A stretch of 64,000 nucleotides of DNA from Methanoregula sp. (lineage in GTDB: Archaea; Halobacteriota; Methanomicrobia; Methanomicrobiales; Methanospirillaceae): the NCBI GenBank assembly GCA_039698055.1, contig JBDKTL010000016.1, forward strand, positions 1-64,000. Direction: 5' to 3'. Made by a program: the position numbers and the translations under genes. Shown one piece after another: positions 23,321 through 54,633 of this stretch; the stretch's first letter is position 1, and every line of letters starts with the position of its first letter. The notes below the pieces were generated by a model. It did no database searches. It had not been told where the DNA came from and was given only the letters and a program-made list of their open reading frames with translations.

Positions 23321-23455
23321 ATGGATCAACTTTACGTGACACGTGAAGCCATCGAAGCCTACGAACGCCGGACCGGTTTTCAGGGCCTCGGGCAATTCAT
23401 GATCGACAAAGGACTGTTCGTTATGACGGAGGAAAATACATGCAAAACGGCTTGA
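23321..23455 (+). CDS. Small hypothetical protein, 44 aa
   Basis: MDQLYVTREAIEAYERRTGFQGLGQFMIDKG...; GGTGA RBS upstream; below the ORF-track size cutoff. Confidence 0.5.
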   Translation: MDQLYVTREAIEAYERRTGFQGLGQFMIDKGLFVMTEENTCKTA

Positions 23456-23585
23456 GCCCCTGCCCGCTTTCTATGCCGGTCTACCACAACTACACTGAAA
23501 TACGAACAGGGGGGGTAGATCACTCTACCCTTGACCTCTTTAATTTTTTCATGGTTAATTCTGCCGAAAGGGTCTGGTGAATTTC

Positions 23586-23918
23586 ATGACGGTAAGCCAG
23601 GCGATCATTCGCAGAACTAGCGGAGGCAAGGTTTTCATCGAGACTCCCGAGGGATTGTATCCGCTTTCACAGGAACATCTCCGGAACATTCTCTTCTATG
23701 GACACCGGGTTCCAGTTATACGGGACAGTGGCGACACCGACAGCAAAGCGGTCATCTTCGGGAAACGTCCCGGGTTCAACGGTGCGAGGAGGATTTTCTT
23801 CGTTACGGCTGGACGGTCATTCTCAATCGCGGATATTTCGTTTATCTCTGTGGTGAAGGGCAAGTGGGCCGCAGCCTCGATGGTCCCGGATCCCAGCCAG
23901 GTGGCCGGCAATGCATGA
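23586..23918 (+). CDS. Hypothetical protein of the element
   Basis: ORF with GGTGA RBS, co-oriented upstream of the replication gene. Confidence 0.55.
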   Translation: MTVSQAIIRRTSGGKVFIETPEGLYPLSQEHLRNILFYGHRVPVIRDSGDTDSKAVIFGKRPGFNGARRIFFVTAGRSFSIADISFISVVKGKWAAASMVPDPSQVAGNA

Positions 23919-23983
23919 CTTGGAGCGCTCTGCATGGATGAGCGAATGCAGAAGTTCGGTCTCCTTACCCTTACCGGGGAACC

Positions 23984-27088: not shown

Positions 27089-27630
27089 CGGTCCCGCCCG
27101 CGCTGCTCTCCCACGAAAGTACCGAGCACTACACTCCTCAGTATATCCTTGATGCGGTGATCGCGTGCTTGGACAAAATCGATCTCGACCCGTGCAGCAA
27201 CAGTCAGGAGATCCCGAACGTGCCGGCAGCGATCCACTATACCGCTCTGGACAACGGCCTCCTGCGGCCGTGGGTGGGGAAGCTCTTCATCAATCCGCCA
27301 TTCGGTTACGACGTCGAGCAATGGTTCTCGAAACTTTACCTGGAGCGGCTTGAGGGCCGGACCACAGAGGCGATTGTCCTCTGGAAGTCCGCGACCGAGA
27401 CCGCGGCCTGGAAGACGCTTACTCAATTATCGTGCCGGGTGTGTTTCCCCTCCTCGCGGATCCGGTTTGTCGGTCCATCGGGCGATGATGGCCCCGGGCC
27501 GACGTTTTCACCAGCGCTGTTCTATGTCGGGGACCGTCCCGAGCGGTTCGAGGATTCATTCCGGTCGATCGGAGATGTATGGATTGTACCGAAGGTTGCG
27601 GGTCGGGGTCCCGAGCGGGGGATTGCGTGA
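27085..27630 (+). CDS. Phage-type DNA N6-adenine methyltransferase
   Basis: EHYTP, IDLDPCS, FINPPFG, RIRF; overlaps the stop codon of the upstream gene (ATGA). Confidence 0.85.
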   Translation: MTVPPALLSHESTEHYTPQYILDAVIACLDKIDLDPCSNSQEIPNVPAAIHYTALDNGLLRPWVGKLFINPPFGYDVEQWFSKLYLERLEGRTTEAIVLWKSATETAAWKTLTQLSCRVCFPSSRIRFVGPSGDDGPGPTFSPALFYVGDRPERFEDSFRSIGDVWIVPKVAGRGPERGIA

Positions 27631-27761
27631 ACGACCAGAGTCTCAATCTCGGGGAGGCGCTGCGGCTGGCCCGGGAGAAGGCTAACCGGGAACGAAACCG
27701 GGCGAAGTGCAAGAAGTATTACCGGAACCGGACCGAGAAAGGGAAGGGAGGTGGTGAGTGA
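27627..27761 (+). CDS. Small basic hypothetical protein, 44 aa
   Basis: GTGA overlap with the MTase; RERNRAKCKKYYRNR. Confidence 0.4.
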   Translation: MNDQSLNLGEALRLAREKANRERNRAKCKKYYRNRTEKGKGGGE

Positions 27762-27802
27762 ACAATTAAAAACCCGACCGTATAGTACTAAATTGATATT
27801 GC

Positions 27803-29137
27803 ATGATTTTCCTTGAAGAAGAATTTTCTGACGCTGTTACCAGACTCCAGACAAATCCTCTTCAAACCGATGAAATTCTAAATCTTCTTTTGGGATCTAT
27901 TCGAAAAGGGATACTTTATCAAATTTTGAATGTTGAACAGCGCGTTCACGAAATTGCCAACTCGAATCCCATTTTTTCTCAGGAATATATTCGGAAGTAT
28001 GTGAAATTGTGTAATGACTTGTGGTTTTTACCTCAGCCTCCGAGCGTTCATTTTTTCCTTTCGGATAACATTGGACCCTTGATACCAGTTGTATCAGGAA
28101 TTGATCATTCACTCCTTCATGAAAGATTAATCAAAATGCAGTTTTTCCGAGCACTGATCCAAAAATGCGATTCAAATTGTAAAAATTTAAGCGAGATGCA
28201 GGTGTTAGCTGAACGGCTTTCTGAAATAGCTGAATCCACTCCTTTTGTGACAAATCCCTACAAACATAGAGATTTGAGCAATTACAATGCACTTGTGGAT
28301 AAATCTCTTCAATTGATTGAAGATATTGAGGATCGTGCTCAATACAATGTCCATTATTATCAAATTTGTAGAAATCTGAGTAGATGCCCGACCCTAAAGG
28401 GATATGTAGAATTATTTTTGATCGAATGTATCCGGGACCAACGTTTTTCTTCCTTGCTGTGGTTATTGGCAGAAAATACTGAATTACATGATGCTTACTT
28501 GTGTGAATTTGAACGAGGACTTCAATTATATGAATCACTCCCGAATGAAAAACATACGACAATTGGTAGAATTAAAAAAGAAATTAAAAATCAACTTGAA
28601 AAAAATGAGGATTTTGGAGATTTTCTTTCGGAACTTCTCATTATGAATAAAGTTGGAAGAGGCCAAATACTTGTCAAAGATAAAAAAATTGGGAAAAAAT
28701 TTATCGACCTCGAAATCCGTTTAGGAAATAAAAAAGTCCTTTTTGAGATCAGAGCTCCTGAGATGCAAAGGGACTCAACAATAACTGGGGGAGGTTTTCT
28801 TAAAAATAAATACGATGATGCTATTGTCGATAAACGAAGGCAATTGAAGGAAGGACTAGATCATAATCTCGATCCTTTGATTGTCACCGAAGATATTTTC
28901 TTTTACGTCGTAATTGATGGAAGCAAAACTCCAATAGCGCATGATTGCATGGATTTATTCGTAAATGAAAATCAGGAGAATGATCTCGTCAGTGGAGTGA
29001 TTGTATTTCGGCCAATCAATAAGGTCACGAAGGCACATCACCTCTCATTATCTGGGTGGATAAAAAATAATCCAAAGGGGAGAAACGTGCTTTCACTGGA
29101 TGAATTAACAGAACTTAGTCAGATTCTATTTAGCTAA
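27803..29137 (+). CDS. AT-rich hypothetical protein with possible C-terminal PD-(D/E)XK nuclease domain
   Basis: DFLSELL...FIDLEIRLGNKKVLFEIRAP; abrupt shift to AT-rich sequence. Confidence 0.6.
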   Translation: MIFLEEEFSDAVTRLQTNPLQTDEILNLLLGSIRKGILYQILNVEQRVHEIANSNPIFSQEYIRKYVKLCNDLWFLPQPPSVHFFLSDNIGPLIPVVSGIDHSLLHERLIKMQFFRALIQKCDSNCKNLSEMQVLAERLSEIAESTPFVTNPYKHRDLSNYNALVDKSLQLIEDIEDRAQYNVHYYQICRNLSRCPTLKGYVELFLIECIRDQRFSSLLWLLAENTELHDAYLCEFERGLQLYESLPNEKHTTIGRIKKEIKNQLEKNEDFGDFLSELLIMNKVGRGQILVKDKKIGKKFIDLEIRLGNKKVLFEIRAPEMQRDSTITGGGFLKNKYDDAIVDKRRQLKEGLDHNLDPLIVTEDIFFYVVIDGSKTPIAHDCMDLFVNENQENDLVSGVIVFRPINKVTKAHHLSLSGWIKNNPKGRNVLSLDELTELSQILFS

Positions 29138-29479
29138 TGACTTCCATTCGAGGATAAATTATGACCCGTACCAAAATAACCCCAAATTGAGCCCCGTTTC
29201 CCATGCCCCTATCCGGAAAACCCCGTAAAATCGAGATTTTTCCCGCCCCTAAAAAATAAGCCCAAAATAGCCCCTGTTTGCCAAAATACGGCAGATAACC
29301 GCATCGCCAAAAGGCCACCGGAGCCCTTTCCTTGGCGGTCTTTTTGGCACCTACTTTTCTCCATCCGGACCCGAAATATGCCACCGGAACGCGAATACGG
29401 GGCTCGTCTTTTCCGGCGGTATTTTTATAAAATCGGCAAAATGGGCATTAAACCTGAAAACAAGGTTTTGGAGGGGAGA

Positions 29480-29854
29480 TCAGCGGATGTATTCACGTAA
29501 TTTTCCGACGAGGGCAAGCTGATTTTTAGCTTCTTTCTTTTTCTCTTCTTCGATAAATCCCATGATTTTCGTCATGGGCACTGCCAGCTCATAGACTTTC
29601 TGCGGGCGGCCCTTGTTCTCGGAGGACTTCTCGCTCTCTTTGATCCAGCCTTGGTCCGCCAGGTATTTCATCGCAATGCTGACTTCGGGCTGGCGAAGGT
29701 CCGTTCCCCGTTCGATCGACCGGGATGTTGCCTCAGTTGTGTTCGCCAGGAACACCAGTAACTTTGCAACATTTTTCTTCGTCCCTATTTCGATCAACAG
29801 GTTCACGAACGCTTCTTCCTTATCTGTAAAATACTGAACGCTCTCTGTTCTCAA
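29480..29854 (-). CDS. wHTH transcriptional regulator (archaeal ArsR/TrmB-like)
   Basis: SRSIERGTDLRQPEVSIAM, KGRPQKVYEL. Confidence 0.82.
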   Translation of the reverse strand: MRTESVQYFTDKEEAFVNLLIEIGTKKNVAKLLVFLANTTEATSRSIERGTDLRQPEVSIAMKYLADQGWIKESEKSSENKGRPQKVYELAVPMTKIMGFIEEEKKKEAKNQLALVGKLREYIR

Positions 29855-35712: not shown

Positions 35713-36453
35713 ATGGCATCGCTCTTCTCCCGCAGCCTTGCGGAAGGGGTAGGCACCCTCCTTTTGGTCTATTTTGGGACCGGGGCTGCCGTGATCACCC
35801 TGCTGATCGCAGCAGGAACAAAGCCTGCGACTACATTCAACGTCGGGATCGGACAGTTGGGGGGGCTCGGCGACTGGCTGGCGATCGGCCTTGTCTTCGG
35901 GATCGTGGTCGCCGCTGTGATCTGCGCGCTGGGCCGGGTCTCGGGCGCCCACATCAACCCGGCGGTGACCATCGCACTCTGGGCGACAAAACGGTTTCCC
36001 GCGAACGAGACTGTTGCCTACGTGATCGCCCAGTGTATCGGGGCTGCGGCAGGAAGCCTGATCCTTTTCCTCACGCTCGGGGCTGCTGCGGTAACGACCG
36101 GTGGCCTTGGGGCAACCTCGCCATTCCCGGGGATCGGGTACGGGCAGGCGATGCTTGTCGAAGGGGTCGCCACGTTTGTCCTGATGCTCGTCATTATGGG
36201 GGTCGCGGTAGACCCGCGTGCCACGCCGGGTTTTGCCGGCCTGGTGATCGGCCTTACCGTCGCCGGAATGATCACGATGGCCGGTAACATCTCCGGTGCA
36301 TCGATCAACCCGGCCCGCACGTTCGGGCCGTATCTCATGGAAAACCTTCTGGGTGGTGCAAATCTCTGGCAGTACTTCCCGATCTATGTGATCGGGCCTG
36401 TCGTCGGGGCGGTCACGGCAGCGTTCTTCTACGACAGGATTACGGCGCAATAA
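35713..36453 (+). CDS. MIP-family channel (aquaporin AqpM-like)
   Basis: SGAHINPAVT and SINPARTFGP NPA motifs. Confidence 0.93.
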   Translation: MASLFSRSLAEGVGTLLLVYFGTGAAVITLLIAAGTKPATTFNVGIGQLGGLGDWLAIGLVFGIVVAAVICALGRVSGAHINPAVTIALWATKRFPANETVAYVIAQCIGAAAGSLILFLTLGAAAVTTGGLGATSPFPGIGYGQAMLVEGVATFVLMLVIMGVAVDPRATPGFAGLVIGLTVAGMITMAGNISGASINPARTFGPYLMENLLGGANLWQYFPIYVIGPVVGAVTAAFFYDRITAQ

Positions 36454-39361: not shown

Positions 39362-39528
39362 CATTGCCGGCGGGGTTGCTCAACCCGGCACGGACGTTCG
39401 GGCCGTACGTGGTGGACGGCCTGCTCGGCGGCGCAGATCTTTGGCAGTACTTCTCAATCTACGTGATCGGGCCGGTTTGCGGAGCGGTTGCTGCCGCGTT
39501 TTTCTACGACGGAATCACGATACAATGA
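39342..39528 (+). pseudogene. Frameshifted 3' fragment of a second aquaporin gene
   Basis: Aligns by eye to 36268-36453 (MITMAGNI..NPARTFGPY..LWQYF.IYVIGPV.GAV.AAFFYD). Confidence 0.8.
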
Positions 39529-41538: not shown

Positions 41539-43479
41539 TTGGGAAAGCCCTTTCAATCTGAATTGAATAAAATCCCAGATACCATAGTTTGGGCGTTGAA
41601 TGAAAAAATAGAGGAAATTGTTTCGTTTATCGAGTCCTCTTATGATTCACCCCTCTACATAATTGGTTCAGGCGGCTCATTAACCGCTGCTCATTTGGTG
41701 AAATTACTCCACGAAGAGCTTGGAGCTTTTGCGCGAGTAATCACACCATATGAACTGCTGACAATGGACGCATCGTTGCGAAATTCAAGCATCCTGATGA
41801 TAACTGCAGGAGGTCGCAATCCCGATATTCTTTTTTCTTTTAAACATGCTGCAAAATCAGAGCCCAAGAATCTACTGGCCGTTTGTATGCGACCTAATAG
41901 CCCGCTTAAGGAAATAGAGAATACATATAATTTCGCGAAAGTTATTGATTTCCACATCCCTTCTGGAAAAGATGGTTTTTTGGCAACAAATTCGTTGGTT
42001 GCTTTTTGTATGCTCTTTTCTCGTGCTTATAGCGAAGTCTTGCAACAAAATACCACTTTCGATACTGGAATTACCCGTGACATTGAGATCTTCCCAGATA
42101 CCTCTTTTATGAATCAACTAAAAGTTTTATCGACGTTTAGCGTTCTTTATGGAAAGTGGAGTCTTCCAGCTGCTATCGACTTAGAATCAAAATTTACTGA
42201 AGCCGCTCTTGGAAATGTTCAGATTGCGGATTTTAGGAATTTTGCTCACGGACGACATTATTGGTTAGCGGGAAAAGGCGAACAATCTGGAATTGTCGCA
42301 ATTTATACTCTTGATGAAGAAAAAATTGTCAACAAAACATTGGACCTCATTCCAAAAGAAATTCCCGTCTTTAGAATATCTTCAGATTTTTTGGGCTCAA
42401 AGGGTGCGATTCAGTTATTGATTAAAAATTATTATTTTACAAATCTCGTTGCAGCGTATCAGGGAGTTGATCCGGGTTGTCCGACAGTTCCCATGTTCGG
42501 ACGTAAAATATATCGATTAAATGTCAATCCAATAATTCCCAAAGAAAAAATTCCTACGGGGATTAGTCATCAAGAATACGTCTCGATTAAAAGAAAAGTC
42601 GATTATATCACGTTGAAAGATCAGGAAATTCTCTCTATTTGGGTTAAAGCATACCGCGATTTTCTGAAAAAAATTAAATTATGTAAGTTTGGCTCAATCA
42701 TACTCGACTATGATGGTACACTTTCTGCAAAAACCGACAGAGAACTAAACCTTCCCACAGCGATATGCTCTGCTTTAACTCGATTATTGGAAAATGGTGT
42801 GATAATCGGTATTGCTACAGGGAGAGGCAAATCAGTTAGAGAGGAGATGCAAAAAGCAATTCCTCGTGAATTCTGGAATTCTATTGTCATAGGATATTAT
42901 AATGGTGCAGATATTAGTGATCTCTCCGATGAGGCACATCCAGATCTGGGAATTGAAACAGACCCTATTTTACTAAAATTAGAAGCCGTGTTAAATCAGG
43001 ATCCTCTCTTAACAAAATATTCCAAATGGGATCCTCGTCCCCATCAAATCTCAATATTTCTAAGAAAGGCTCATTTCAGGAATACCGTCAAATCCAAACT
43101 GGCTGATATCCTATCCCAGAATGACTTTGTAAGCTTAAAGTTTTTCGAATCTTCACATTCTTTCGATATAGTCACTGATGGTGTATCTAAGAAAAATCTA
43201 TTTTCTTTCGTTGAAAATAAAGCAGAGAGTAAAGGGAGACCTAAGGAAATTCTTTGTATCGGAGATAAAGGCAAGATCCCGGGAAATGACTTCGAGCTTT
43301 TACAGTCACCTCTTGCTCTGAGCGTCGATGAAGTATCTCATTGCTTCGAGAATTGTTGGAATTTAGCCCCTGAAGGATATCGGGGACCTCAGGCAACATT
43401 GGAGTATCTCGAATCAATAAAAACGCACGATAACTATATGAAATTTAATTTTCATATCGAGGGGAATATAAATGAATGA
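41539..43479 (+). CDS. SIS (sugar isomerase) domains fused to a Cof-type HAD phosphatase
   Basis: IIGSGGSLTAA, ITAGGRNPDI, ESKFTEAAL..NFAHGRH (GlmS-like SIS pair); ILDYDGTL, IATGR, GVSKK, IGDKG..GNDFELL (HAD motifs I-IV). Confidence 0.85.
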   Translation: MGKPFQSELNKIPDTIVWALNEKIEEIVSFIESSYDSPLYIIGSGGSLTAAHLVKLLHEELGAFARVITPYELLTMDASLRNSSILMITAGGRNPDILFSFKHAAKSEPKNLLAVCMRPNSPLKEIENTYNFAKVIDFHIPSGKDGFLATNSLVAFCMLFSRAYSEVLQQNTTFDTGITRDIEIFPDTSFMNQLKVLSTFSVLYGKWSLPAAIDLESKFTEAALGNVQIADFRNFAHGRHYWLAGKGEQSGIVAIYTLDEEKIVNKTLDLIPKEIPVFRISSDFLGSKGAIQLLIKNYYFTNLVAAYQGVDPGCPTVPMFGRKIYRLNVNPIIPKEKIPTGISHQEYVSIKRKVDYITLKDQEILSIWVKAYRDFLKKIKLCKFGSIILDYDGTLSAKTDRELNLPTAICSALTRLLENGVIIGIATGRGKSVREEMQKAIPREFWNSIVIGYYNGADISDLSDEAHPDLGIETDPILLKLEAVLNQDPLLTKYSKWDPRPHQISIFLRKAHFRNTVKSKLADILSQNDFVSLKFFESSHSFDIVTDGVSKKNLFSFVENKAESKGRPKEILCIGDKGKIPGNDFELLQSPLALSVDEVSHCFENCWNLAPEGYRGPQATLEYLESIKTHDNYMKFNFHIEGNINE

Positions 43480-44581
43480 GGATCTTGCCAAAAAAATTCT
43501 CAGAACATCTCTTGACTGGACGACAGATGAGATAAGAGATGAGATGTCAACTATTCAATTAATGGCCAGTTATAAGTATGATAATTATCAGCGTTTTTTT
43601 CCCGGTATGCGTTTTATTGAGAGCCTTTCTCAGTGGTTAAATCAATTCAAAACAATTGAGGAAAGGAAAGTAGCATATGAATTCATTAAAAAACGGTTGA
43701 TATTTTTCTCTGAAAGAGAAATCGAGCAACTCGTTTCAATGTCATATCCCGATCTGATAAAACCCATCCTTTATGAAAAAACGGCGTCAAATTTACATTG
43801 CTCTGAATATCAAATAAAGAAAATTTTTGAGAGTACCGAATTCAAAATTCTTCAAAGAAAATCTCTATTTTTAGGTTTAAGTGATGGGGCCCATATGGAT
43901 TTATTCAGGAGAATGAATCGTGAAGTGGGGTTGAAACACGATCAAATTAGTATTGGTTATGACATTAATGACACAAAACGTATTGAGCTTCTCGAAGAAC
44001 TCAAGAACGACCTAGAGAAAATTCCAGGATGTTCCACCTCGCAAGAAAATCTTCTTTTTAAAAATATTTTTTTAATTGATGATTTTTCAGCAAGTGGAAA
44101 AAGTTACTTTCACATTAAGAATGGCGAAATAAAGGGAAAAGTTGCTAAGGTAATGGATCAAATCAATAATCCAGATAGTGAGATCTCAAAAATAATCGAT
44201 AAATCTGATTTATTGGTTTGTGTTATTCTATATATAGCAACTGATACCAGCCTCAACTATCTGAGGCCGTTACTGAATGAAATTGCTGAAGCGAAAAAAT
44301 TTAAAATAAAAATTGTCTGCATTCAGAAACTAGATGATCAAACAAAAATTCAAAATGGCGAGGCTTTTTTGAAATTGATAGAAAACGATGCTTATTATGA
44401 TTCGGATGTGGAATCGAATGCAACTATGGTGGGCGGCACTAAAAGCGTAAAATTGGGCTTTGCCAATTGTGCTTTACCTGTGATATTGTATCACAATACT
44501 CCCAACGATTCTGTCGCAATTCTATGGCTGCATGAATATTTGAAGATAAAGGGGCTTTTTCCAAGAGTCACTCGCCATTAG
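43472..44581 (+). CDS. Phosphoribosyltransferase-like protein (conflict-system PRTase type)
   Basis: WLNQF, IFLIDDFSASGKS PRPP-binding loop, LGF..CALPVILYHNTPNDS, GLFPR. Confidence 0.75.
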   Translation: MNEDLAKKILRTSLDWTTDEIRDEMSTIQLMASYKYDNYQRFFPGMRFIESLSQWLNQFKTIEERKVAYEFIKKRLIFFSEREIEQLVSMSYPDLIKPILYEKTASNLHCSEYQIKKIFESTEFKILQRKSLFLGLSDGAHMDLFRRMNREVGLKHDQISIGYDINDTKRIELLEELKNDLEKIPGCSTSQENLLFKNIFLIDDFSASGKSYFHIKNGEIKGKVAKVMDQINNPDSEISKIIDKSDLLVCVILYIATDTSLNYLRPLLNEIAEAKKFKIKIVCIQKLDDQTKIQNGEAFLKLIENDAYYDSDVESNATMVGGTKSVKLGFANCALPVILYHNTPNDSVAILWLHEYLKIKGLFPRVTRH

Positions 44582-44589
44582 GATAGATC

Positions 44590-46467
44590 ATGATCGAACC
44601 ACGAAATCCGTTTATGATACAAACTTCGGAACAAATCGATTCCGAAAGAATATTTCTCCGATTATTCTCTCCTGGCGTACTGTCTTTATTAACAAATAAG
44701 GAACTTTGGGACAGAGTCAGTTTAATACTAAGCTCCCCCGGGGGGGGGAAAAGTTCCCTGATACGCCTTTTTACTCCGGGATCTCTTCTTGAACTCCATA
44801 ACCACCGAACTCATGAATTATTTAAAGAACTTTATCAAAGGATGAATCAATTGGGTGTTATTAATGACAATGGGCCTCAGATTTTAGGAATTTCGATATC
44901 CTGCGTCAGAAACTACGATTCTCTCGAAGACTTAAATCTCGAAGACGTTGATAAAAAGAGACTTTTTTTTGCATTACTAGATTCGAGGATTATCATATCG
45001 GCATTACGAGGATTAGTGGAGTTAAATCATTTGAAATTCGATGAAGATTTGAAAGCCATTACTTATATTTTACCTAACGATCTCCCATTGCCGACTGATT
45101 TTCCACAGAGGGGAAATGGACACGATTTATTTACCTGGGCTCAGAAGGCCGAAGAAAATGTGTATTCTATCATTGACAGTTTCGGCCCGATAAAGAAAGA
45201 ATCGTTGAAGGGTCATGATAGATTGATCAGTGCATTTGTTCTCAAACCAGATTATTTCAAATGCAATTCTAATTCTATTCCTCCACGAACTGTCATAATG
45301 TTGGACGATTGTCATAAATTGACCTCCACCCAACGAAAATCACTTTACGAAATTATTGACCAAAGACCTCCGATTGGTATCTGGATTGCGGAAAGATTTG
45401 ATCATTTTTCAATTGATCAATTAATCAATAAAGGGGCCTACCATGGTCGAGAAATTAATTTTATTGAATTGGAGGATTTTTGGAGCCAATCAAGCAAATT
45501 TGAAAAAATAGCGGAGAATATCGCTGATAAAAGAGCCCGATTTGCATCAACTGTAGATATTCAATCATTTGCCTCAAGATTACAATTTGAATGTGGCGAC
45601 TCTGAACAAAAACACCTTGAAGAAATTTGTAAAAAAATCGAAGAAAAAATTTTAAATAAAGGCAAAATTTCAGAAAAGTATATCGAGAGAATTGAATCTT
45701 TGCGAAATTCTCAGGAAAGACCCTTTGAAAGAGCAATATCTTGGAGATCGCTTGAGATCTTGATTGATCGGGATTTGAAGAAAGAACAAAAATTGATCTC
45801 TGATTATTCGGATGATCTCATCATCCCAATCGAAGAAGAATCTTTGGTTGATCGAGAAAATTCCGATGTAAGAAATGCCGCGGAATTATTCCTATCGAAG
45901 GACTATAAACTACCTTACTATTATGGCATGTCTCGTCTCGTCAAGGTGTCATCCTCAAATATATCCCAATTCTTGTGGATTAGTGGGAATATTTTTGAAG
46001 AAATTCTTGCTCAAAATTTAATGGATCCCTCAAAACTTATTGGCCTTAAACCTCAAGAAAAAATTATTAAAAAAATTATTGATGAGCGATGGAATCAACT
46101 TCCATACCGAGTTCAGTATGGTCGGGAGATCCAAAAATTCCTGACCTCGGTTGGAAAATTTTGTGCAAATGAGACCTATAAAGCGAATGCCTGGAATGCG
46201 CCAGGTGTAACAGGTATCGCAATACTAATGTCCGATGTAAAAAGACTGAATGAAGAAAAAAAGTACAAAAAACTGAATACAATCCTGAGAGAATGCATCG
46301 CAAATAAATTGTTAGAGGCGAGTCCTGGGAAAAAATGCAAAAATAAGGAATGGATGGTTCTATATTTCAACCGAATGTATTGCGTTTATTTTAATTTACC
46401 TCTGCAATACAGTGGAAAATTCAAGGAGAAAAAACTGGATGATGTTCTTAGCTGGCTAGAAAATTAA
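44590..46467 (+). CDS. P-loop ATPase (ORC/CDC6-STAND-like)
   Basis: NPF at the N-terminus, LILSSPGGGKSS Walker A, VIMLDDCH Walker B, YYG...SSNISQFL helical region. Confidence 0.75.
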   Translation: MIEPRNPFMIQTSEQIDSERIFLRLFSPGVLSLLTNKELWDRVSLILSSPGGGKSSLIRLFTPGSLLELHNHRTHELFKELYQRMNQLGVINDNGPQILGISISCVRNYDSLEDLNLEDVDKKRLFFALLDSRIIISALRGLVELNHLKFDEDLKAITYILPNDLPLPTDFPQRGNGHDLFTWAQKAEENVYSIIDSFGPIKKESLKGHDRLISAFVLKPDYFKCNSNSIPPRTVIMLDDCHKLTSTQRKSLYEIIDQRPPIGIWIAERFDHFSIDQLINKGAYHGREINFIELEDFWSQSSKFEKIAENIADKRARFASTVDIQSFASRLQFECGDSEQKHLEEICKKIEEKILNKGKISEKYIERIESLRNSQERPFERAISWRSLEILIDRDLKKEQKLISDYSDDLIIPIEEESLVDRENSDVRNAAELFLSKDYKLPYYYGMSRLVKVSSSNISQFLWISGNIFEEILAQNLMDPSKLIGLKPQEKIIKKIIDERWNQLPYRVQYGREIQKFLTSVGKFCANETYKANAWNAPGVTGIAILMSDVKRLNEEKKYKKLNTILRECIANKLLEASPGKKCKNKEWMVLYFNRMYCVYFNLPLQYSGKFKEKKLDDVLSWLEN

Positions 46468-46473
46468 ATTTTA

Positions 46474-47637
46474 ATGGATGGGGAAGAAATGGATGAGATT
46501 ATAAACGAAATGCGATGGGAAAATTATTTTTTACGTCGAGGAATGGATTTTAAAAAGTACTGGAAAGAATTCCTCGCCTCAAAACAAAGAGATGTCTGTT
46601 ATATTCTTGGTCTTGGATTTGATCCCCGTATGTGTTCCGCCATTGATTATATCATAAAGTGCGATGGGGAGGGTATTAGAGATTGTTATCTGATAAAGTT
46701 TAATGAAGGGGAAACATCGCAATCGAAAAATTATGAGCCTGAAATCGCAGAGAATGAAAAAAAATTAACTAAAATAATGTCAGATCGCGGCAGAATAATT
46801 CCTAAAGAAATTGAGATGATATCCTCAGATCGACGGAGAATTGGGGGGAGAGCAATAATTAAATGTTTAAATGATGTTGATTTCTCAAAATATTCTGATA
46901 TTATAGTCGATATTAGTGCCCTACCACGTCCATTATATTTTCCAATTATCAGAAAATTCCTGCACGAATTTGATGAAAAACGGAAAAATGGTCAGCGAAA
47001 ATTCAATCTTCACATAATCATTGTGGAAAATCCCAAGTTGGATTCATTGATTAAAGCATTGGGTGTAGAGGACAAAGCAGATTATATCGTTGGTTTCAGA
47101 GGACGAGTTGAATTGGAATCCACCGGAAATCTACCGACGGTCTGGATTCCGATTTTAGGTGAGGGGAAAGCAATACAATTAGACAGAATATATACACTGG
47201 TTAGACCCCAAGAAATATGTCCGGTTCTACCATTTCCAGCGCTAAATCCCCGAAGGGGAGATGATATCATCATTGAATATAGGGAAATGTTATTCGACAA
47301 CCTGCGAATAGATCCGGTTAATATCCTCTATGCCTCCGAACAAAATCCTTTTGAAGTCTATCGGAAAATCGTTCGGACGGTATCACAATATCATAGAACT
47401 TTAAATGTACTAGGTGGATGCAAAATCGTCGTATCAATATTGTCAAGTAAATTGCTTTCGATGGGAGCCCTTCTTGCAGTTTATGATATATCTGAAGATC
47501 TTCAGCCTAAAATCCCGATCGCGATCGCTCATGTGGAAAGTCAGGGATATGAGCTAGATCCATTCGATAAAGACGAAATTATGAAACATGAAGAGCTATA
47601 TTCTATGTGGCTAGCCGGCGAATGCTATGACGACTGA
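46474..47637 (+). CDS. Hypothetical protein, possibly tandem Rossmann/CARF-like domains
   Basis: YILGLGFDPR, IIVDISALPR, WIPILGEG, CPVLPFP, LSSKLLSMG. Confidence 0.6.
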   Translation: MDGEEMDEIINEMRWENYFLRRGMDFKKYWKEFLASKQRDVCYILGLGFDPRMCSAIDYIIKCDGEGIRDCYLIKFNEGETSQSKNYEPEIAENEKKLTKIMSDRGRIIPKEIEMISSDRRRIGGRAIIKCLNDVDFSKYSDIIVDISALPRPLYFPIIRKFLHEFDEKRKNGQRKFNLHIIIVENPKLDSLIKALGVEDKADYIVGFRGRVELESTGNLPTVWIPILGEGKAIQLDRIYTLVRPQEICPVLPFPALNPRRGDDIIIEYREMLFDNLRIDPVNILYASEQNPFEVYRKIVRTVSQYHRTLNVLGGCKIVVSILSSKLLSMGALLAVYDISEDLQPKIPIAIAHVESQGYELDPFDKDEIMKHEELYSMWLAGECYDD

Positions 47638-48718
47638 CGAATTAAATTTTTTTGAAAATAAGGACCCAAAACCAATAGCTACCGGAACCGGACTCATAGC
47701 ATTGGATGTAATAATTAATGGCCATAATAGAAATGAGCCTTATTACATGACCGGAGGATCATGTGGGAATGTTTTAATAATTCTCTCGTATTTTGGGTGG
47801 CACACATATCCTCTTGGCCGGTTTAAAGAGGATAATTTCTCAAAATTTATTATCGGCGATTTGAAAAAGTGGGGCGTAGATACCTCATATCTTAAATTTG
47901 ACGATAAGGCAAGTACACCTGTTATTATCGAAAAAGTCAGACAAAAGGAAAATGGCGAATCAACCCATGCCTTCAGCTTCTTTTGTCCTGAATGTAATTC
48001 GTTTTTACCGAGATATCGACCCGTCACAATAAAACAAGTCGAGTCTATTCTGGATAATTTACCTACATCCAGTGTTTGCTATATTGATCGAGTATCCGGT
48101 GGGACCCTTGAATATGCAAAATCTTGTAAAAATAAAGGAGCTTTGATCTTCTTTGAACCCACAAAAATTGATGATAATAGCAATTTTCGTAAAATTCTTG
48201 AAATTTGTGATGTTTTAAAATATTCAAATGAAATTTGCATTACCGATCCAAATATTGTGCGCGATAGCTACGTTCCGTTGAAAATCGAAACGCTAGGTTC
48301 ATCCGGATTATTGTTTAGTTTTAACAACGGCCTCTCTAGAAAAAGAAACGAAAAATGGCAAAAAATGAGGGCGTTTCCTATCAAAAACTTCGTTGATGCA
48401 GCGGGTGCAGGTGATTGGTGTAGCGCAGGACTAATTCATTTTTTAAATATGAAAAAAATAACGGACATCAATCAATTAGATGAAAAAACGTTAAAAACCG
48501 CATTAAATTTTGGACAAGCTCTTGCGGCGGCAAATTGCAGATTTTTTGGAGCACGAGGTAGTATGTATGCACTCTCTAAAGATAACTTTCACAAATTCGT
48601 TAATGACATTCTTAAAAAGAAGGATATTTCGACCTCTAATATGCCCCCTTTGCAATTAAAACGACCGAAAAAAAACAAAGGTTGTTGTCCAATTTGCAAT
48701 GAAAAGAACCGTGTGTAA
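47627..48718 (+). CDS. PfkB/ribokinase-family kinase with CxxC insert
   Basis: GTGLIALDVI, GGSCGNV, VDAAGAGDWCSAG anion hole; FFCPEC. Confidence 0.88.
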   Translation: MTTDELNFFENKDPKPIATGTGLIALDVIINGHNRNEPYYMTGGSCGNVLIILSYFGWHTYPLGRFKEDNFSKFIIGDLKKWGVDTSYLKFDDKASTPVIIEKVRQKENGESTHAFSFFCPECNSFLPRYRPVTIKQVESILDNLPTSSVCYIDRVSGGTLEYAKSCKNKGALIFFEPTKIDDNSNFRKILEICDVLKYSNEICITDPNIVRDSYVPLKIETLGSSGLLFSFNNGLSRKRNEKWQKMRAFPIKNFVDAAGAGDWCSAGLIHFLNMKKITDINQLDEKTLKTALNFGQALAAANCRFFGARGSMYALSKDNFHKFVNDILKKKDISTSNMPPLQLKRPKKNKGCCPICNEKNRV

Positions 48719-49066
48719 TAATTTTGAATCTCTTTTTCTATTCCTATTATTTCGGAATGCATCGGCACTACGGGCGAATGATAAGACCGTGACGGACTTA
48801 GTTAGTGATCACAATTGGATTATGGTGGCTTCGAAGCAGATTATCGTCAGCCAATTTTCATGGGGTCCGGGGTCCCATGTTTCCTGCAGAGCGTGATCAT
48901 GCGGCTGGTCCCGGTCCATCCCTCTCTTCCCAAATCTAATATTCTCCCAGACACTATACTGAATCAGAAATTGAGCTGCATCCGCCCCGGAACTTCCATT
49001 TTGGGAAAGAAACCGGATTTCGGCTCGGTACAAAAACGTGGAAAATCCCTTACATAAGGTTCGGAC

Positions 49067-50530
49067 ATGACAGAACAGATGAATATCCGGGAACTCGTTG
49101 ATACTCTGCGACGTAAGGACACCGAAGAGGAATGGTTTGAGTTCAAAGTCGATTACGCCGAACCTCAAAAGATCGGTGAATATCTGTCGGCGTTGAGCAA
49201 TTCAGCGGCATTGTCCCACGAGGAGTACGGCTATCTTGTCTACGGTCTGGATGATTCGCATCACAGGATCGTCGGCACCGGGTTTCAGCCAAAAAAGGCA
49301 AAAGGAAAAGGGAACGAGGATCTCGAGCCATGGCTGACCCGCCTTCTGGATCCCCGTGTTGATTGTGCGATTTGGGAAGAGGAGATAAATGGGGCCCGGG
49401 TTGTAGTTTTCCGGGTTGCGGCAGCACGGGAACGCCCCGTCAGGTTTTCCGGCGTTGCGCATATCCGTGTCGGTTCCAACAACCATAAACTGGCAGATTA
49501 TCCGGAAAAAGAAAGAAAATTGTGGAGTATTATTCATTCGGTACCGTTTGAGGAGGGTATAGCCCTTACCGGACAGTCAAGCGACGATATCTTACAAAAG
49601 ATCGATTATCCGAAATTCTTCGAGCTCATGAAAATCCCCCTCCCTGATAACCGGGCGGGGATACTCAGCAGGCTTGAGGAAGAGAAAATTATCCAGAAAA
49701 CAAAGGATCATTACTATTCTATAACCAATTTAGGTGCAATTCTCTTCTCAAAAAACTTCGAGGATTTCCCACCACTCACCCGCAAATCCCTGAGAATTGT
49801 TGTGTACGATGGGGACGGCCGCCTGAATGCAAAGAAAGAGCATATCGTCAAGAGCGGTTATGCAACATCGTTCGAATCGACTATCGACTGGATATTTGAT
49901 CAGGTCCCTTCCAATGAGGTAATCAAGGATGCATTGCGCGTCGAGCGAAAGATGTACCCGAAAGTTACGATCCGTGAAGTTGTTGCAAATGCGTTGATCC
50001 ACCAGGATTTTTCCATAACCGGTGCCGGGCCGATGGTTGAGGTGTTTTCGAGAAGGATGGAAATTTCGAATCCCGGCAAACCGTTAATCAGTCCGGACCG
50101 GTTTATTGATCATCCTCCCCGATCGCGGAACGAGAAACTGGCGTCGGTGATGCGCCGCGTAAATATTTGTGAAGAGCGGGGTAGCGGGATTGATCGGGCG
50201 ATCGATTGCATAGAGGTATTTCAGTTACCCGCGCCGGAATTTCTTGACGACAATGATTTCATGCGCATTACGTTGTTCGGACACCAGAATATCGGCGAAA
50301 TGGGAAAAGCAGATAAGATTAGGGCTTGCTACCAGCACTGCTGCCTGAGATGGGTGTGCCGGGACTATATGACAAACGCAACTCTCCGGAAGCGGCTGGG
50401 GATTGACGACCTGAATTATCCCATGGCTTCACGGATTATCAAGGACACCATGGACCAGGGCTTGATCCGGTTGTATGATCCGGAAAACAAATCGAACAGG
50501 ACCCGGAAGTACATCCCGTTCTGGTCATAA
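49067..50530 (+). CDS. Schlafen/AlbA_2 domain with RecG-C-like (HATPase_c_4) domain and wHTH
   Basis: EEEWFEFK, SALSNS, GYLVYG, IRVGS; REVVANALIHQD, ISNPG, RSRNEKLA, CEERGSG. Confidence 0.85.
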   Translation: MTEQMNIRELVDTLRRKDTEEEWFEFKVDYAEPQKIGEYLSALSNSAALSHEEYGYLVYGLDDSHHRIVGTGFQPKKAKGKGNEDLEPWLTRLLDPRVDCAIWEEEINGARVVVFRVAAARERPVRFSGVAHIRVGSNNHKLADYPEKERKLWSIIHSVPFEEGIALTGQSSDDILQKIDYPKFFELMKIPLPDNRAGILSRLEEEKIIQKTKDHYYSITNLGAILFSKNFEDFPPLTRKSLRIVVYDGDGRLNAKKEHIVKSGYATSFESTIDWIFDQVPSNEVIKDALRVERKMYPKVTIREVVANALIHQDFSITGAGPMVEVFSRRMEISNPGKPLISPDRFIDHPPRSRNEKLASVMRRVNICEERGSGIDRAIDCIEVFQLPAPEFLDDNDFMRITLFGHQNIGEMGKADKIRACYQHCCLRWVCRDYMTNATLRKRLGIDDLNYPMASRIIKDTMDQGLIRLYDPENKSNRTRKYIPFWS

Positions 50531-50559
50531 ATTTGGGCGTAGCAAAATATCATCGGCCA

Positions 50560-50663
50560 ATGTAACTGGCATGTGCATATGCACAAAGAAAAAGGGCAGA
50601 TTGAGGGGGTTACCCCGTTTGCTCGTCAATTTGATGTAACAGGTTATGTAACGGGCATGTAAC
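50560..50663 (+). repeat. ATGTAAC heptamer repeats (x4; three in tandem)
   Basis: Copies at 50560, 50634, 50646 and 50657. Confidence 0.6.
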
Positions 50664-50740
50664 TGAAAGGGATAATCTCCCGGACCGCCCACCCTGGAGT
50701 CCCGCCCACCAACCGAGGGCGGGAACCATTGTGTCCGGTT

Positions 50741-51312
50741 GACACGCAGACGCTCGGTCATGTTCACTCGTCCTCGCTGATGCTCCGGCTCGCTTCACAT
50801 CACCTCGCTGTTTCTTTCGGTTGATTGCTGGGATGAGGACGCCCCTGGCTTGTCGCGCTGCTCCGGCGCCAGCGGCTGCCCCGGCCCGCTCCTCACACCA
50901 TGCTCCGCATCGTGTTCGTCGCTGTTGATGCGAAAACGCAGACGCTCAGTGACTCGCTCGCACGACGCACAGGGGGCTCGGACTCGCCGCTGATGCGGCT
51001 CCTTACCTTCGCGCCCCTGTCGCGGTGCTCGCTCGGGCCGCTGGGCCCCGGACCTTTCTCCCGCTTCGCTCCTCCCTCCCTTGAAAAGGAGGGCAGTCAT
51101 TGCGATAGGAACGGAGGAGGTTTCAGGGCCGGGCGGGAGGACAAAGCGACGGTTACCGGACGCATCAGCGGACGGTCGCTCGCTTTGTCGGGCGGGTCCA
51201 ACCGAAGCGATCGCGTACCAACAGGAAACTAAAGAGGGCGGGTCATGGCCACACGGCGCGGTTACGGGACGCATCAGCGGCCTGTCGCGCTGTGTGCCTG
51301 GGCGGGCCTTGC
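50741..51312. repeat. Structured GC-rich non-coding element, copy 1 (inverted homolog of 53207-53792)
   Basis: 50881-50929 matches the reverse complement of 53605-53653 at 48/49; colinear similarity and conserved hairpins along the whole length. Confidence 0.85.
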
Positions 51313-51443
51313 GAAAAATAAAAATTTAATTCTGCGCAATTGCCTTATTTCGCAAATCGGACAACGCACCGCTTTTACTTTCACCCTGCGCACGCCGATG
51401 TACTATATGCTCTAACGTCGATAGATGTATGGTGAAAAACACC

Positions 51444-51824
51444 ATGAGGCCAACAACAAAAACAGATGTGAAGTTCGAGCACATAGGGGCAGCCCGCCTC
51501 TATCAGAGCTCGGTCCGTATCGATGTCAAGACAATGCAGGCAGTCATTCCCACCAGTGAAGTACACAAACTTGAACAGCACTGGCCTGCGGCAGTCTATG
51601 ACATATCCGATGTTATGAAGAACGCGGACGCGGCCCCGGTCGGGAAGGCATGGATCACCCGGTCCGGTAAAGCCGTGATGATCTCCATCAACGATGTGCA
51701 GTATGTCTCCCCTCTCGCACAGGTAAAGGGGATGCTCAAGGGCGAGCGGAAATATGCAAACGTCTCAACCATGTGCACCGTGCAGCCCATGACCACAAAC
51801 CAGCCGGCAGGGGCGACAGCATGA
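51444..51824 (+). CDS. Hypothetical protein upstream of ardC
   Basis: GGTGA RBS before MRPTTKTD; VGKAWITRSGKAV; overlaps the ardC start (ATGA). Confidence 0.65.
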   Translation: MRPTTKTDVKFEHIGAARLYQSSVRIDVKTMQAVIPTSEVHKLEQHWPAAVYDISDVMKNADAAPVGKAWITRSGKAVMISINDVQYVSPLAQVKGMLKGERKYANVSTMCTVQPMTTNQPAGATA

Positions 51825-52732
51825 AGGCCGCTGACGTAAAGGCGCAAATAAACGAGAGGATCATAAAATCTCTCGCGGAAGGAAAGATCCCCTGGCTGAA
51901 GCCGTGGACCGAGAACGGGCCGCGCAACCTCTTCAGCGGCAGGGCATATACCGGGCTGAACCGGCTGATCCTCGGGCTCAGTCCCTATCCTCTCCCCTTT
52001 TGGGCAACCTACCGCCAGTATCTCGCAGCAGGGCTACAGGTCCAGTTTGGTGAGCACGGCACCGGGATTATCTACGCAGGCCGGACCGTGAAGACCGACA
52101 CGGAAAGGGACGAGAACGGCGAGGAGACCGAGCGCAGGAAACAGATCCGTTTCCTGAAAGCCTTCGTTGTTTTCAACATCGCCCAAACCGATTACAAGGA
52201 GAAGGGCTACAAGATCCCGGACCAGAAAGAGAACCCGCACCTTCTCGGATGCGATACAATCATTCAGGACTACACGGGCCGGGAGTCGATAAGGATCGCA
52301 GGAGGAAGCCGAGCCGCATACTCCCCGCAGATGGATATTATCACCTGCCCGGAGATCGGCCAGTTCAGGACTTCCGAGCACTATTATGCGACGATGTTTC
52401 ATGAGTGCGTTCACTCCACCGGGCCCCGGCTCGACCGGTTCAAGCGGACCGATCCGGTCTGCTTCGGGTCCGACACCTACGGGCGCGAGGAACTGGTAGC
52501 CGAGATCGGGAGTGCATACCTGGCCGCACTCACCGGGATTGATTCAACGGCGATCATTCAGAATCAGGCCGCCTACCTCCAGAACTGGGCGACGGCGATT
52601 AAGGCCGATGCGGATCTTGTGATGTATGCCGCAGGCAGGGCAGAGAAGGCAGCGGACTTTATGATCGGGGCTTCGGCCCCGGACCCTGCCAGCGCTGCAG
52701 GAACAGAAATGGCGGGAGGGGTGGCAGCATGA
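51821..52732 (+). CDS. ardC: ArdC-family antirestriction / ssDNA-binding protein
   Basis: IPWLKPW, PRNLFSGRAYTGLN, WATYRQ, VFNIAQ, HECVHSTG, YGREELVAEIG, AAYLQNW. Confidence 0.9.
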   Translation: MKAADVKAQINERIIKSLAEGKIPWLKPWTENGPRNLFSGRAYTGLNRLILGLSPYPLPFWATYRQYLAAGLQVQFGEHGTGIIYAGRTVKTDTERDENGEETERRKQIRFLKAFVVFNIAQTDYKEKGYKIPDQKENPHLLGCDTIIQDYTGRESIRIAGGSRAAYSPQMDIITCPEIGQFRTSEHYYATMFHECVHSTGPRLDRFKRTDPVCFGSDTYGREELVAEIGSAYLAALTGIDSTAIIQNQAAYLQNWATAIKADADLVMYAAGRAEKAADFMIGASAPDPASAAGTEMAGGVAA

Positions 52733-52995
52733 CCCCGACCATTTACGACGCCATGCCGATCAAAGTGCTTGAAGAACTCGAACGCATCGAGATTGCGATC
52801 CCTGCAATGGAGCGCCGGGCATTCATGCTGCAAGCCGATGCGCAGGACCTCCGCTTGAGACATGATGAGATCATCAAGTCATGGACAGACAAGGCTGCAT
52901 GGGAGGGGCTCGACAACCTGATCGCAGAACGGCACCGGCTTGATATGATCGCGTGGCACTGCGATCCGCTGCCGAGCGGGATCCGGACGGAGTAG
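52729..52995 (+). CDS. Hypothetical protein, 88 aa
   Basis: ATGA overlap with ardC; helical. Confidence 0.55.
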   Translation: MTPTIYDAMPIKVLEELERIEIAIPAMERRAFMLQADAQDLRLRHDEIIKSWTDKAAWEGLDNLIAERHRLDMIAWHCDPLPSGIRTE

Positions 52996-53206
52996 ATCCT
53001 GTGCTCAGCTTGCGGGAACTCCGGGAGTACCGGAAAAAACGATCAACCATTTTTGGGATGTGGAAAAGTCTGATCTGGTGGCTGCACAGGACAAAGAAAA
53101 GAATTCTTTTGCTCCGGTAAAAACGGTGGCCCGGACAGGGACACCATGAGGCCAATCACGAGCCCTGCCTGGGTTGGTACAATATCGACTCCTGGCATTA
53201 TCTTTC

Positions 53207-53792
53207 TTGGCAAAGGTTGGCCCACCCCGAAGGCTCACGCGACGGGCCCGCCCGGCGGTCCCGTATCCGGCTCGCCTTCTTCCCGCCCGGACCGCTACCC
53301 GGTGGCTGTCCTGTTGAGATATCCTGATCTTCCTGGGCCCGCCCGATGCTCACGCGACACGGCGATGGTCGCCGTGTTCCGGCTCGCATCCTCCCACCCC
53401 CACCCGGAAACCTTATCCCGTGGTTATCCTAATGACTGCCCGTCCCTTTCAAGGGCGGGAGGAGCGAAGCGGGAGGCGGGTCGTGGCCGCAGTGGCCCGA
53501 ACGAGCACCGCTTCAGGGTGCGAAGGTAACGAGACGCATCAGTGTCGAGTCCGAGCCCCTGATGCGTCGTGCGAGTGAGTCACTGAACGAGCGGCGTGAG
53601 TACGATCAACAGCGACGAACACGATGCGAAGCATGGTGTGAGGAGCGGGCCGGAACAGCAAGCCCCGCCGCGAGCCTGCGAGCAAGGGGGTGCGTCTTCG
53701 TCTGCCCAATCAACCGAAGAAAAGCAGCGAAGTGATGTGAGCGTAACGGGCGTGAGCCCGTGGAGACGAACATGACTGAGCGTCTGCATATC
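53207..53792. repeat. Structured GC-rich non-coding element, copy 2 (inverted)
   Basis: Reverse complement aligns to 50741-51312; perfect stem GACGCATCAG/CTGATGCGTC; GCGAAGC motifs. Confidence 0.85.
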
Positions 53793-54633
53793 ACGCGAAC
53801 ACTGAGGGAGGAACGCCGCCCCGCTCCGCACGCTTCGTGCACCTTCGGCGCACTCGCACATGCTCCGCGGACCGGCTTTTTGTGCGCGATTTGAAATTTT
53901 GATCATTTTTTTGATGAGCGAAGTTCAGGAAAATATTTATTTATGCTGCGTGCCAAATAATTTCAAATCAGATTTCATTTGAAAATTGGACAAAAATTAG
54001 AGTGTTTGCGCATTGAACTTGCGGTCAGGAATCCTGCTTCTCGCACTCTCTTCTTGTCTGCATTCCCCGGCATGTGAACGTGATCAGTTGGATTCGATTA
54101 TCCCGATAATCTTTGAATCCGGTTGAGAGGACAATGTTTAAAAAAAAAATTTTACAACCAGAATAAACACTTCGTTTTTTGGGCCATCTTGTGCTCTCTT
54201 TATTGAAAATCACCATGTCTATCCACCATCATATCACCCGGTTTTCATCGGTTACTGCTCTGGAACTGCCATTTTTTTACGATTCAAGCATAAAACCTGC
54301 GATCATATGCGGTTACACGAAAAAGAAGAGAACAAGAATAGGAAAATGCACGTCTCTTTTCAGGATCAAAACCAGCAAATCCGGATTTTCCCTCCTGTTG
54401 AACGCAATATTCTCACCTCAATAACTATGCATATCCTGTTTATGCCGTACATTTCCTGATCCAGGAATCCTGTCGTTCGCAGAAAATTATGTGGAGATCC
54501 GTGAGCCATAAAGACCTCTTGCATATTTTTAAAAATCACTGTTTTTACAGGATCCATCGTGACGGGGGATAATTATTTTATTGAGGATAAAAAAAATTAT
54601 TTACGCATGTGTAAAAAAGCAGGAGTGGTTTGA

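Follow-up and report, generated by a model that had tools for sequence, protein, structure and literature searches.

The window analysed here is a 64,000-nucleotide (nt) stretch of Methanoregula sp. DNA (contig JBDKTL010000016.1 of assembly GCA_039698055.1), and our subject within it is a cassette in which an operon carrying an ardC-like anti-restriction gene lies between two inverted arms, U (50736–51312, − strand) and D (53207–53802, + strand). We found that the arms are a conserved, modular, hairpin-forming non-coding element that occurs as inverted pairs around ardC in integrated elements of the Methanoregulaceae, and that their hairpins are under selection. We conclude that the arms are a new family of folded nucleic-acid elements. 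As to what they do, we tentatively read them, with less than even confidence, as cis-acting hairpin arrays that work as single-stranded DNA (ssDNA), one per strand, pointing into the ardC operon.

That the two arms align colinearly as inverted copies had been claimed in an earlier note made from the sequence alone, and three comparisons bear this out. Arm U pairs with the reverse complement of arm D in blastn (78% over 422 nt, E 1.2e-76, in the 2.26-Mb genome); a repeat search recovers one colinear chain of inverted matches (50731–50765 with 53768–53802; 50875–50929 with 53605–53659, 55 nt at 95%; 50943–51016 with 53516–53589; and 51015–51093 with 53440–53518); and alignment of 50700–51330 with the reverse complement of 53190–53830 in MAFFT gives a mean column identity of 81%. 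The limits originally given for the copies (50741–51312 and 53207–53792) were right in their pairing and too narrow in their extent: in related loci a 76-nt terminal hairpin, found in the window at 53803–53878, is present at both ends, and the inverted repeat is thus slightly longer than first claimed. Two details reported with the original claim are present in the arm alignment. The 49-nt block with 48 identities (A1 columns 193–241) differs solely in the middle base of a GNA triloop, GCGGAGC at 50902–50908 (−) versus GCGAAGC at 53626–53632 (+), and a stem is kept while its sequence changes, CCCTCC..GGAGGG in one arm and CCCGCCC..GGGACGGG in the other (A1 columns 390–412). The inner ~170 nt consist of different modules in U and D. 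Because the conserved blocks of the arms contain insertions and deletions (indels) of 1 and 2 nt and the open reading frames (ORFs) that cross the arms match no Pfam family, the arms are non-coding; the protein-coding remnant against which the earlier note had warned is rejected, since the indels do not come in threes and the arm ORFs are without a family.

The whole unit (50736–53877, about 3.1 kb) recurs at 79 to 98% identity in about 20 fetched loci, and a blastn search with the left arm found matches in 109 of the family's 201 sampled genomes, spread over 12 of 19 genera. Among 16 ArdC loci taken with 6-kb flanks, 14 share the same architecture, which upholds the proposed tie of the arms to ardC; the two loci without flanking arms hold the most distant ArdC proteins (77 to 78% identity). 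The shared order runs from an inverted terminal hairpin, sometimes through an iteron-like module and a hairpin module (M_it and M_hp, below), to the outer core, the middle part, and the inner modules, and continues through a spacer, ORF131, ArdC, ORF88 or a DUF6876 protein, and a second spacer to the inverted modules and the terminal hairpin. When 151 genomes from across the order were searched with a covariance model of a 164-nt core, 24 gave a match; by family, the matches fall in 19 of 29 genomes from the same family (with the window's own genome, G000, excluded), 3 of 20 from another, and 1 of 30 from yet another, and the 71 genomes of three further families gave none. G000 itself carries a second cassette, 83% identical, on contig C30, with partial arm copies nearby; all seven of its arm matches lie on two contigs, beside or near its two cassettes, and other genomes have at most six among the matches listed. 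The genome-wide scatter that the earlier note had foreseen as fatal to its proposal did not appear, and a miniature inverted-repeat transposable element (MITE) or multi-copy transposon remnant is rejected, given at most seven matches per genome and no target-site duplication. No known phage or plasmid DNA matched 50700–53900, and no ArdC relatives were found in viral contigs.

The arms also travel in parts. Outer-core copies occur alone next to other genes, and at locus L122 (G134:C1, 4555–7847) M_it, M_hp, and an outer-core fragment sit between a Fic gene and a gene for a 935-amino-acid (aa) UvrA-like ABC ATPase, so the modules accompany genes other than ardC as well. At locus L008 (G000:C30, 4691–7769) three consecutive short radical-SAM ORFs (248, 264, and 217 aa) lie between partial arm copies arranged as direct repeats, a stretch that adjoins the second ardC cassette. 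Between an isolated outer core and an integrase gene, L115 (8750–9085) and L117 (6370–6700) carry repeated GGGGT..CCGGATGGGG..GGCAAA motifs; these repeats may be iterons and are conserved between two genomes.

Evidence for selection on the hairpins comes from covariation, measured against shuffled and slid controls. For 31 arms RNAalifold gives a structure of 99 predicted pairs, and in 33 of these both partners have changed. When the defined structure is applied to 29 arms, 98.6% of cells pair, compared with 89.6% in column shuffles (0 of 500 reach the observed value) and 30 to 45% when the partners are slid by 1 to 3 columns; double changes occur in 31 of 82 pairs, versus 3 to 5 after sliding. 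The 35 covariance-model hits, which include much diverged copies, show double changes in 24 of 37 pairs. Their further pair types number 60, whereas shuffles give 39.2 ± 2.0 (0 of 500), and this count is the measure least inflated by relatedness. The 35-hit alignment was fitted to the model and is hence biased to structure; its slid controls (22 to 50% paired) are still clearly apart. Thus, the helices are kept by compensatory change across genera, as the earlier note had supposed from two copies, and covariation of the kind by which a structured non-coding RNA is generally recognised is present in the arms. Searched against Rfam at gathering thresholds, the window yields only tRNA-Gln, the arms matching none of 4227 families, and at E values up to 5 the region 50500–54100 gives three chance-level snoRNA hits (about 16 bits), none in the arms; a known RNA family is therefore rejected.

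In their anatomy the arms are mosaics of hairpin modules. Arm U comprises an outer core (50736–51050), a middle part (51051–51140), and two inner hairpin modules (51141–51312), each of which ends in GGGCGGG on the + strand; across the arms every inner module ends GGGYGGG on the + strand of U. Arm D, delimited by the repeat, blastn, and helix data, has inner modules of its own. Mean identity is 0.81 among U arms, 0.80 among D arms, and 0.68 between U and D (0.62 to 0.73 within one genome), and judged by these values U and D are distinct old lineages; single hairpin modules have nonetheless been exchanged between sides and genomes. In most of the 35 hits the core hairpin has a GC-GNA-GC apex, with a conserved same-base mismatch (G·G or T·T) five pairs below the loop, while the outermost variable hairpin (H1) has GCGA, GTGA, or GCAA loops closed by GC..GC. 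The terminal hairpin (D_ext, 53803–53878, − strand) is a predicted long hairpin with which the inverted repeat ends abruptly on its outer side. Similarity stops sharply, at both ends and in at least five loci, at AAGCCGGTC(C)GCGGAGC, with unrelated sequence outside; the hairpin is inverted at both ends in L060, L067, L073, L075, and L081, and the termini of the first four of these show no target-site duplication.

The GCGNAGC mini-hairpins that the earlier note had seen are, like CCGAAGG mini-hairpins, concentrated in the arms. Over the window GCGNAGC is at chance level (22 found, 22.4 expected), but 6 of the 22 fall in the 1.35 kb of the arms, where about 0.5 is predicted, an enrichment of about 13-fold. 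The sites in U are both on the − strand (GCGGAGC at 50902, GCGAAGC at 51063) and those in D all on the + strand (GCGAAGC at 53464 and 53626, CCGAAGG at 53227), while those in the terminal hairpin are again all on the − strand (GCGGAGC at 53823 and 53862, CCGAAGG at 53842). According to PMC13037366, GCGNAGC and GCGNNAGC mini-hairpins are extraordinarily stable as DNA, the RNA versions being much less so, and such motifs are found at the phage G4 origin, RSF1010 ssiA, and the N4 early promoters; what the earlier note said of their stability and their occurrence in phages agrees with this source.

Different measures point to different strands. The helices that are predicted on both strands contain very few wobble-type cells (read on the + strand of U, 1680 Watson–Crick, 5 G·T, and 17 A·C). 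The model-fitted hits have 75 G·U (47 without one invariant pair) versus 22 A·C. In the outer core the stable motifs (GNRA-type loops, GNA loops, and three invariant tandem G·A internal loops) all lie on the outward strand (U −, D +), on which 67% of unpaired positions are purines in both arms. It is by these purine-rich loops of the outer core that we assign U to the − strand; the inner modules prefer the other strand, with 39% purine on the outward strand and their G·T pairs opposite, and the terminal hairpin has its GCGGAGC and CCGAAGG on the inward strand. Wobble counts, loop types, and purine bias favour different strands in different modules, and a strand call from wobble pairs was not decisive. 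Four RNA libraries, from two studies, include contigs over both arms and the operon; such contigs give no strand, ends, or level, and libraries of this kind can contain DNA. These contigs continue into unlike sequence at 50735/6 and 53877/8, and none covers 50154–50615 or 54158–54600, which is uninformative because the flanks differ between strains. The terminal hairpin was considered as a terminator and rejected: it is followed by T5 in the window, and the T-run is not conserved at other loci. A scan for sigma-70 promoters and intrinsic terminators, unsuited to archaea, gave chance-level counts.

Our tentative reading as ssDNA signals takes its direction from the outer core, in which, on either side of the cassette, the strand with GCGNAGC, GCGNNAGC, and tandem G·A has its 5′ end toward the cassette and its 3′ end away from it. 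Were either strand of the element exposed as ssDNA, through cell entry or through unwinding beside the iteron-like and A+T-rich flanks, the arm on that strand would fold and could become the place at which synthesis of the complementary strand begins. With the 3′ end of the folded strand lying outward, such synthesis would run inward across ORF131, ardC, and ORF88, so that the anti-restriction operon would be double-stranded, and hence expressible, first, whichever strand is present. The priming enzyme might be an AEP (archaeo-eukaryotic primase)-like 1034-aa protein of the surrounding element or the host primase. We count for this reading the conservation, the selected structure, the mini-hairpin motifs, the few wobble pairs, the outward purine bias, and the context, to which belong the iteron-like and A+T-rich modules flanking the arms and the distances, given below, between arm copies and genes of the 1034-aa family. 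ArdC is a leading-region anti-defence gene in plasmids (PMC11541004). A fuller version, in which Methanoregula elements pass through an ssDNA stage (by uptake or conjugation-like transfer) and ardC is framed by archaeal second-strand initiation signals that both direct synthesis inward, making it the first to become double-stranded and expressed, strikes us as doubtful; if true, it would be the first leading-region logic described in archaea and a new class of ssDNA signal.

The candidate enzyme is encoded at 23984–27088. By eye, the 1034-aa protein has IDVD and SGNGAH motifs and Walker A and B boxes, which we tentatively take to be those of an AEP primase joined to a P-loop helicase; searches of Pfam, PHROGs, NCBIfam, and PDB sequences gave no match beyond a zinc-ribbon trace. 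Its family is present in 140 of 201 genomes of the archaeal family, and arm copies lie 7 to 51 kb from a gene of this family on the 12 contigs for which both coordinates are listed. The link drawn in the earlier note between the arms and the element's putative primase-helicase we regard as loose.

Several observations weigh against the ssDNA reading, beginning with that association: no arm was found in any of the 25 genomes of genus g14, although 23 of them have the 1034-aa family, arms occur without a match to the family (for example in G124, G155, G160, and G161), and the second cassette of G050 lies 1.25 Mb from the only copy of the family in that genome. We know of no ssDNA stage for these elements, and among the scanned ORFs of the window there is no relaxase, rolling-circle Rep, or type IV secretion gene, no genome-wide search having been made. 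In length the arms exceed the IncQ ssi sites about 15-fold. Folded singly, the sequences do only modestly better than their shuffles (z −1.4 to −3.0), so the case for structure rests on comparison and not on energy. The purine-rich loops and G·T pairs of the inner modules and the terminal hairpin lie on the opposite strand, so that to assign each arm one functional strand is too simple. Finally, the RNA-library contigs over both arms fit transcription equally well, and highly conserved unpaired blocks and GNRA-type loops are also typical of structured RNA.

These last points lead to the alternative that the arms are two paralogous genes for large (about 560 to 650 nt) structured non-coding RNAs, transcribed outward from A+T-rich boxes at the inner edges and carried alongside ardC, which we consider possible but somewhat unlikely. 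Such genes would account for the many covarying helices with invariant internal loops and junctions, for the GNRA-type tetraloops, GNA triloops, and tandem G·A loops gathered on the outward strand of the outer core, for the excess of G·U over A·C in the model-fitted hits, and for outer-core copies that stand alone by other genes, as an independent gene could. TATA-like A+T-rich stretches lie about 20 to 25 nt inside GGCCCRCCC at both inner edges, but the box on the D side is weak; similarly, the T5 that follows the terminal hairpin on the outward strand of the window is not kept elsewhere, and the RNA-library contigs, lacking strand and ends, may stem from DNA. For the inner modules and the terminal hairpin it is the opposite strand that is favoured, Rfam yields no match even at E up to 5, and for an RNA gene there would be no need to be conserved as an inverted pair around an operon.

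Two further alternatives start from the inverted arrangement of the arms. In one, which we judge unlikely, the arms are the long terminal inverted repeats of a small cassette that is moved or exchanged by an in-trans recombinase or transposase or by homologous recombination, with the hairpins as recognition or processing sites. The sharp stop of similarity at one terminal sequence at both ends, the divergence of the RNA-library contigs at the same two junctions, the presence of at least two cassettes per genome in G000 and G050, and the swapping of outermost-hairpin variants between U and D across genomes all fit this, as do the quite different genes, ordinary chromosomal ones included, around the cassette in different genomes. 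At L059, moreover, the left flank of the other G000 locus (on C30) adjoins a cassette 98.4% identical to that of the window, which indicates that cassettes have been exchanged between sites. Against this, the cassette has no transposase, recombinase, or invertase gene in Pfam, PHROG, and NCBIfam scans, the four loci inspected on both sides show no target-site duplication, and no empty site emerged when the flanks of 14 cassettes were compared with G000 and L077 with its flanks was compared with 81 genomes of the genus (G180:C1, considered as an empty site, was rejected because it is a contig end). What moves may instead be a larger element: in the one case traced, synteny with a cassette-less genome stops at a tRNA 3′ end 0.7 kb away, which places that cassette in a tRNA-linked island, the shared left flank ending there and different islands following in both genomes, and integrases lie near other loci. 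Double-strand binding sites, furthermore, would not need compensatory stem changes. The other alternative, in which the inverted arms make the ardC segment an invertible DNA switch, is highly improbable. The operon is indeed flanked by inverted repeats, the outer-module variants are arranged (1,2) relative to the operon in the window and L047 and (2,1) in L039, L041, L042, L044, and L045, a pattern that a past crossover between arms would give and that hints at rare past exchange, and four single RNA-library contigs contain three opposite-strand joints between arms. However, these joints lie 7 to 60 nt off homologous positions and can originate in the mosaic arms that other strains carry, homologous recombination is poorly served by an identity of 78%, the cassette lacks an invertase gene, and U and D are separate lineages, which in the closer loci keep their sides relative to the operon, so that exchange is rare. 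The orientation of the operon relative to a shared left flank is the same in L068 and L071.

Between the arms, three genes follow one another on the + strand. ORF131 (51444–51824; 126 aa from the ATG at 51444) encodes a conserved protein with 264 relatives, of which the best 120 are all at least 70% identical and none has a Pfam family; ORF131 itself has no family in Pfam, PHROG, or NCBIfam, and its AlphaFold2 model (pLDDT 58.6, low confidence) is too weak for a fold search. The ardC-like gene (51818–52732) has a predicted 304-aa product that matches ArdcN (PF08401, 1.4e-27) and MPTase-PolyVal (PF18818, 2.6e-28), both past the Pfam cut-offs, and PHROG 7245, an anti-restriction protein (9.2e-59); by these matches it has the N-terminal ArdcN domain and C-terminal zincin-like metallopeptidase domain that define ArdC. 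ORF88 (52729–52995) encodes a small protein, likewise with no family in Pfam, PHROG, or NCBIfam, whose place is taken in other cassettes, among them the C30 copy and L081, by a DUF6876 protein. In the Atlas, ORF131 and ORF88 find only clusters of their own type under 0.9.

The spacers and flanking modules are conserved as well. Between arm U and ORF131 lies an A+T-rich spacer (igU, 51313–51443) with an inverted repeat, TTGCGAAA..TTTCGCAA, and a TATA-like box that might serve as a promoter; this spacer and the non-coding spacer between ORF88 and arm D (igD, 52996–53206) are both kept with the cassette in 14 loci. An exact 15-nt direct repeat, ACACCATGAGGCCAA, occurs at 51439–51453, where it covers the start codon of ORF131, and in igD at 53141–53155, where it opens a 127-aa ORF (53146–53529) that runs into arm D. 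To the left of arm U, M_it (50546–50671) is a non-coding module with four ATGTAAC repeats at an iteron-like spacing of about 11 to 12 nt; it matches at 75 to 87% in at least 10 genomes of the genus and adjoins arm copies in L067, L116, and L122. M_hp (50669–50735), recognised by sequence matches, is a hairpin, TCCCGCCC-N9-GGGCGGGA, with its flanks, which matches at 85 to 98% in at least 14 genomes and directly precedes arm copies in L115, L116, L117, and L067. To the right of the cassette, R_AT (53879–54035) is an A+T-rich module with TTTGA repeats, copies of which adjoin cassettes in L063, L067, L075, and L121 and occur in several genomes of the genus. Several loci have, between the terminal hairpin and the A+T-rich module, an additional conserved module of about 90 nt that includes ACGCTCAACGGGGC..GCCGCGTGGGCTTCCCC and that the window lacks; it lies outside the right terminal hairpin in L063, L067, and L075 and near 4430–4470 in L077.

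In the wider window, the stretch 21857–29854 contains tRNA-Gln and a tyrosine integrase (21991–23211), both within 21857–23211, followed by the 1034-aa protein, a Dam-like methylase (27085–27630), and a MarR-like winged helix-turn-helix gene (29480–29854). Elsewhere, integrases also lie beside isolated outer-core copies, and a small MarR-like gene recurs near cassettes. A search downstream for a repeat of the 3′ part of tRNA-Gln that could mark the right attachment site (attR) gave only chance matches of 11 to 15 nt. The region 41539–50530 has a G+C content of 0.35 to 0.39 and genes that match PRTase-CE and ORC-CDC6-like proteins, which are conflict-system families, together with genes for a HAD-like hydrolase and a PfkB kinase; it resembles a defence island that has been inserted beside the cassette. 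After this low-G+C island a gene with Schlafen/AlbA_2 and HATPase_c_4 domains abuts the non-coding modules left of U. Further to the left, a DUF2193/radical-SAM region contains a 147-nt direct repeat (36305–36451 and 39380–39526, 77%) and a second repeat pair (36265 and 39339); contigs C30 and C25 carry duplicates of this region.

In archaea, conserved folded non-coding elements as large as these are rarely found, and in a targeted literature search and in Rfam none is catalogued for the mobile elements of methanogens; the search, which covered ArdC or mobile elements in methanogens, yielded nothing of relevance. Should the arms prove to be ssDNA signals, they would give the first hint of how an anti-defence gene is switched on early in an archaeal host, and would count as evidence that the elements move about in single-stranded form. 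As RNAs, they would constitute a new family of large structured RNAs, for which the natural variation in hand suffices to model the fold. Either way, the cassette is compact, testable, and widespread in an environmentally important family of methanogens.

Each of the known systems to which the arms can be compared resembles them in part. The termini of transposons and MITEs, and the BIME and REP sequences, which are mosaic palindromic elements of bacteria, share with the arms sharp identical ends and mosaic palindromic units shuffled between copies, but the arms have at most seven matches per genome, show no target duplication or transposase, and have covarying stems. GOLLD, ROOL, and HEARO are large structured non-coding RNAs of mobile elements; like them, the arms are several hundred nucleotides long, have many covarying helices and GNRA loops, and lie on integrated elements, whereas their inverted pairing around an operon and the lack of a match in any of the 4227 Rfam families set them apart. 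An ssDNA promoter of the Frpo type is a single long, imperfect hairpin; it is confined to the transferred strand, where it restores the promoter boxes. Such promoters resemble the cassette in combining an anti-restriction gene with a folded non-coding element on a mobile element (PMC11541004). The arms, in contrast, are G+C-rich (65%) arrays of short hairpins, lie on both strands, and have neither a TATA-like or A+T-rich stem nor a single long promoter-rebuilding hairpin, and the proposal in the earlier note that they act as ssDNA promoters is not supported by this comparison. The ssi sites of IncQ plasmids are about 40 nt each, single hairpins that lie together inside oriV, while the arms are about 580 to 650 nt each, have at least 10 helices, stand 1.9 kb apart around an operon, and belong to an archaeal host; the arms are not short single hairpins within an origin with a dedicated primase. 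Yet ssiA and ssiB of RSF1010 are, like the arms, hairpin signals on opposite strands, inverted, and beside repeats and an A+T-rich stretch. PMC13037366 describes a CCGAAGG-type mini-hairpin in ssiA, the motif that the window has at 53227 (+) and 53842 (−), and the mini-hairpin motifs of the arm bodies share the opposite-strand arrangement of the ssi pair, lying on the − strand in U and on the + strand in D.

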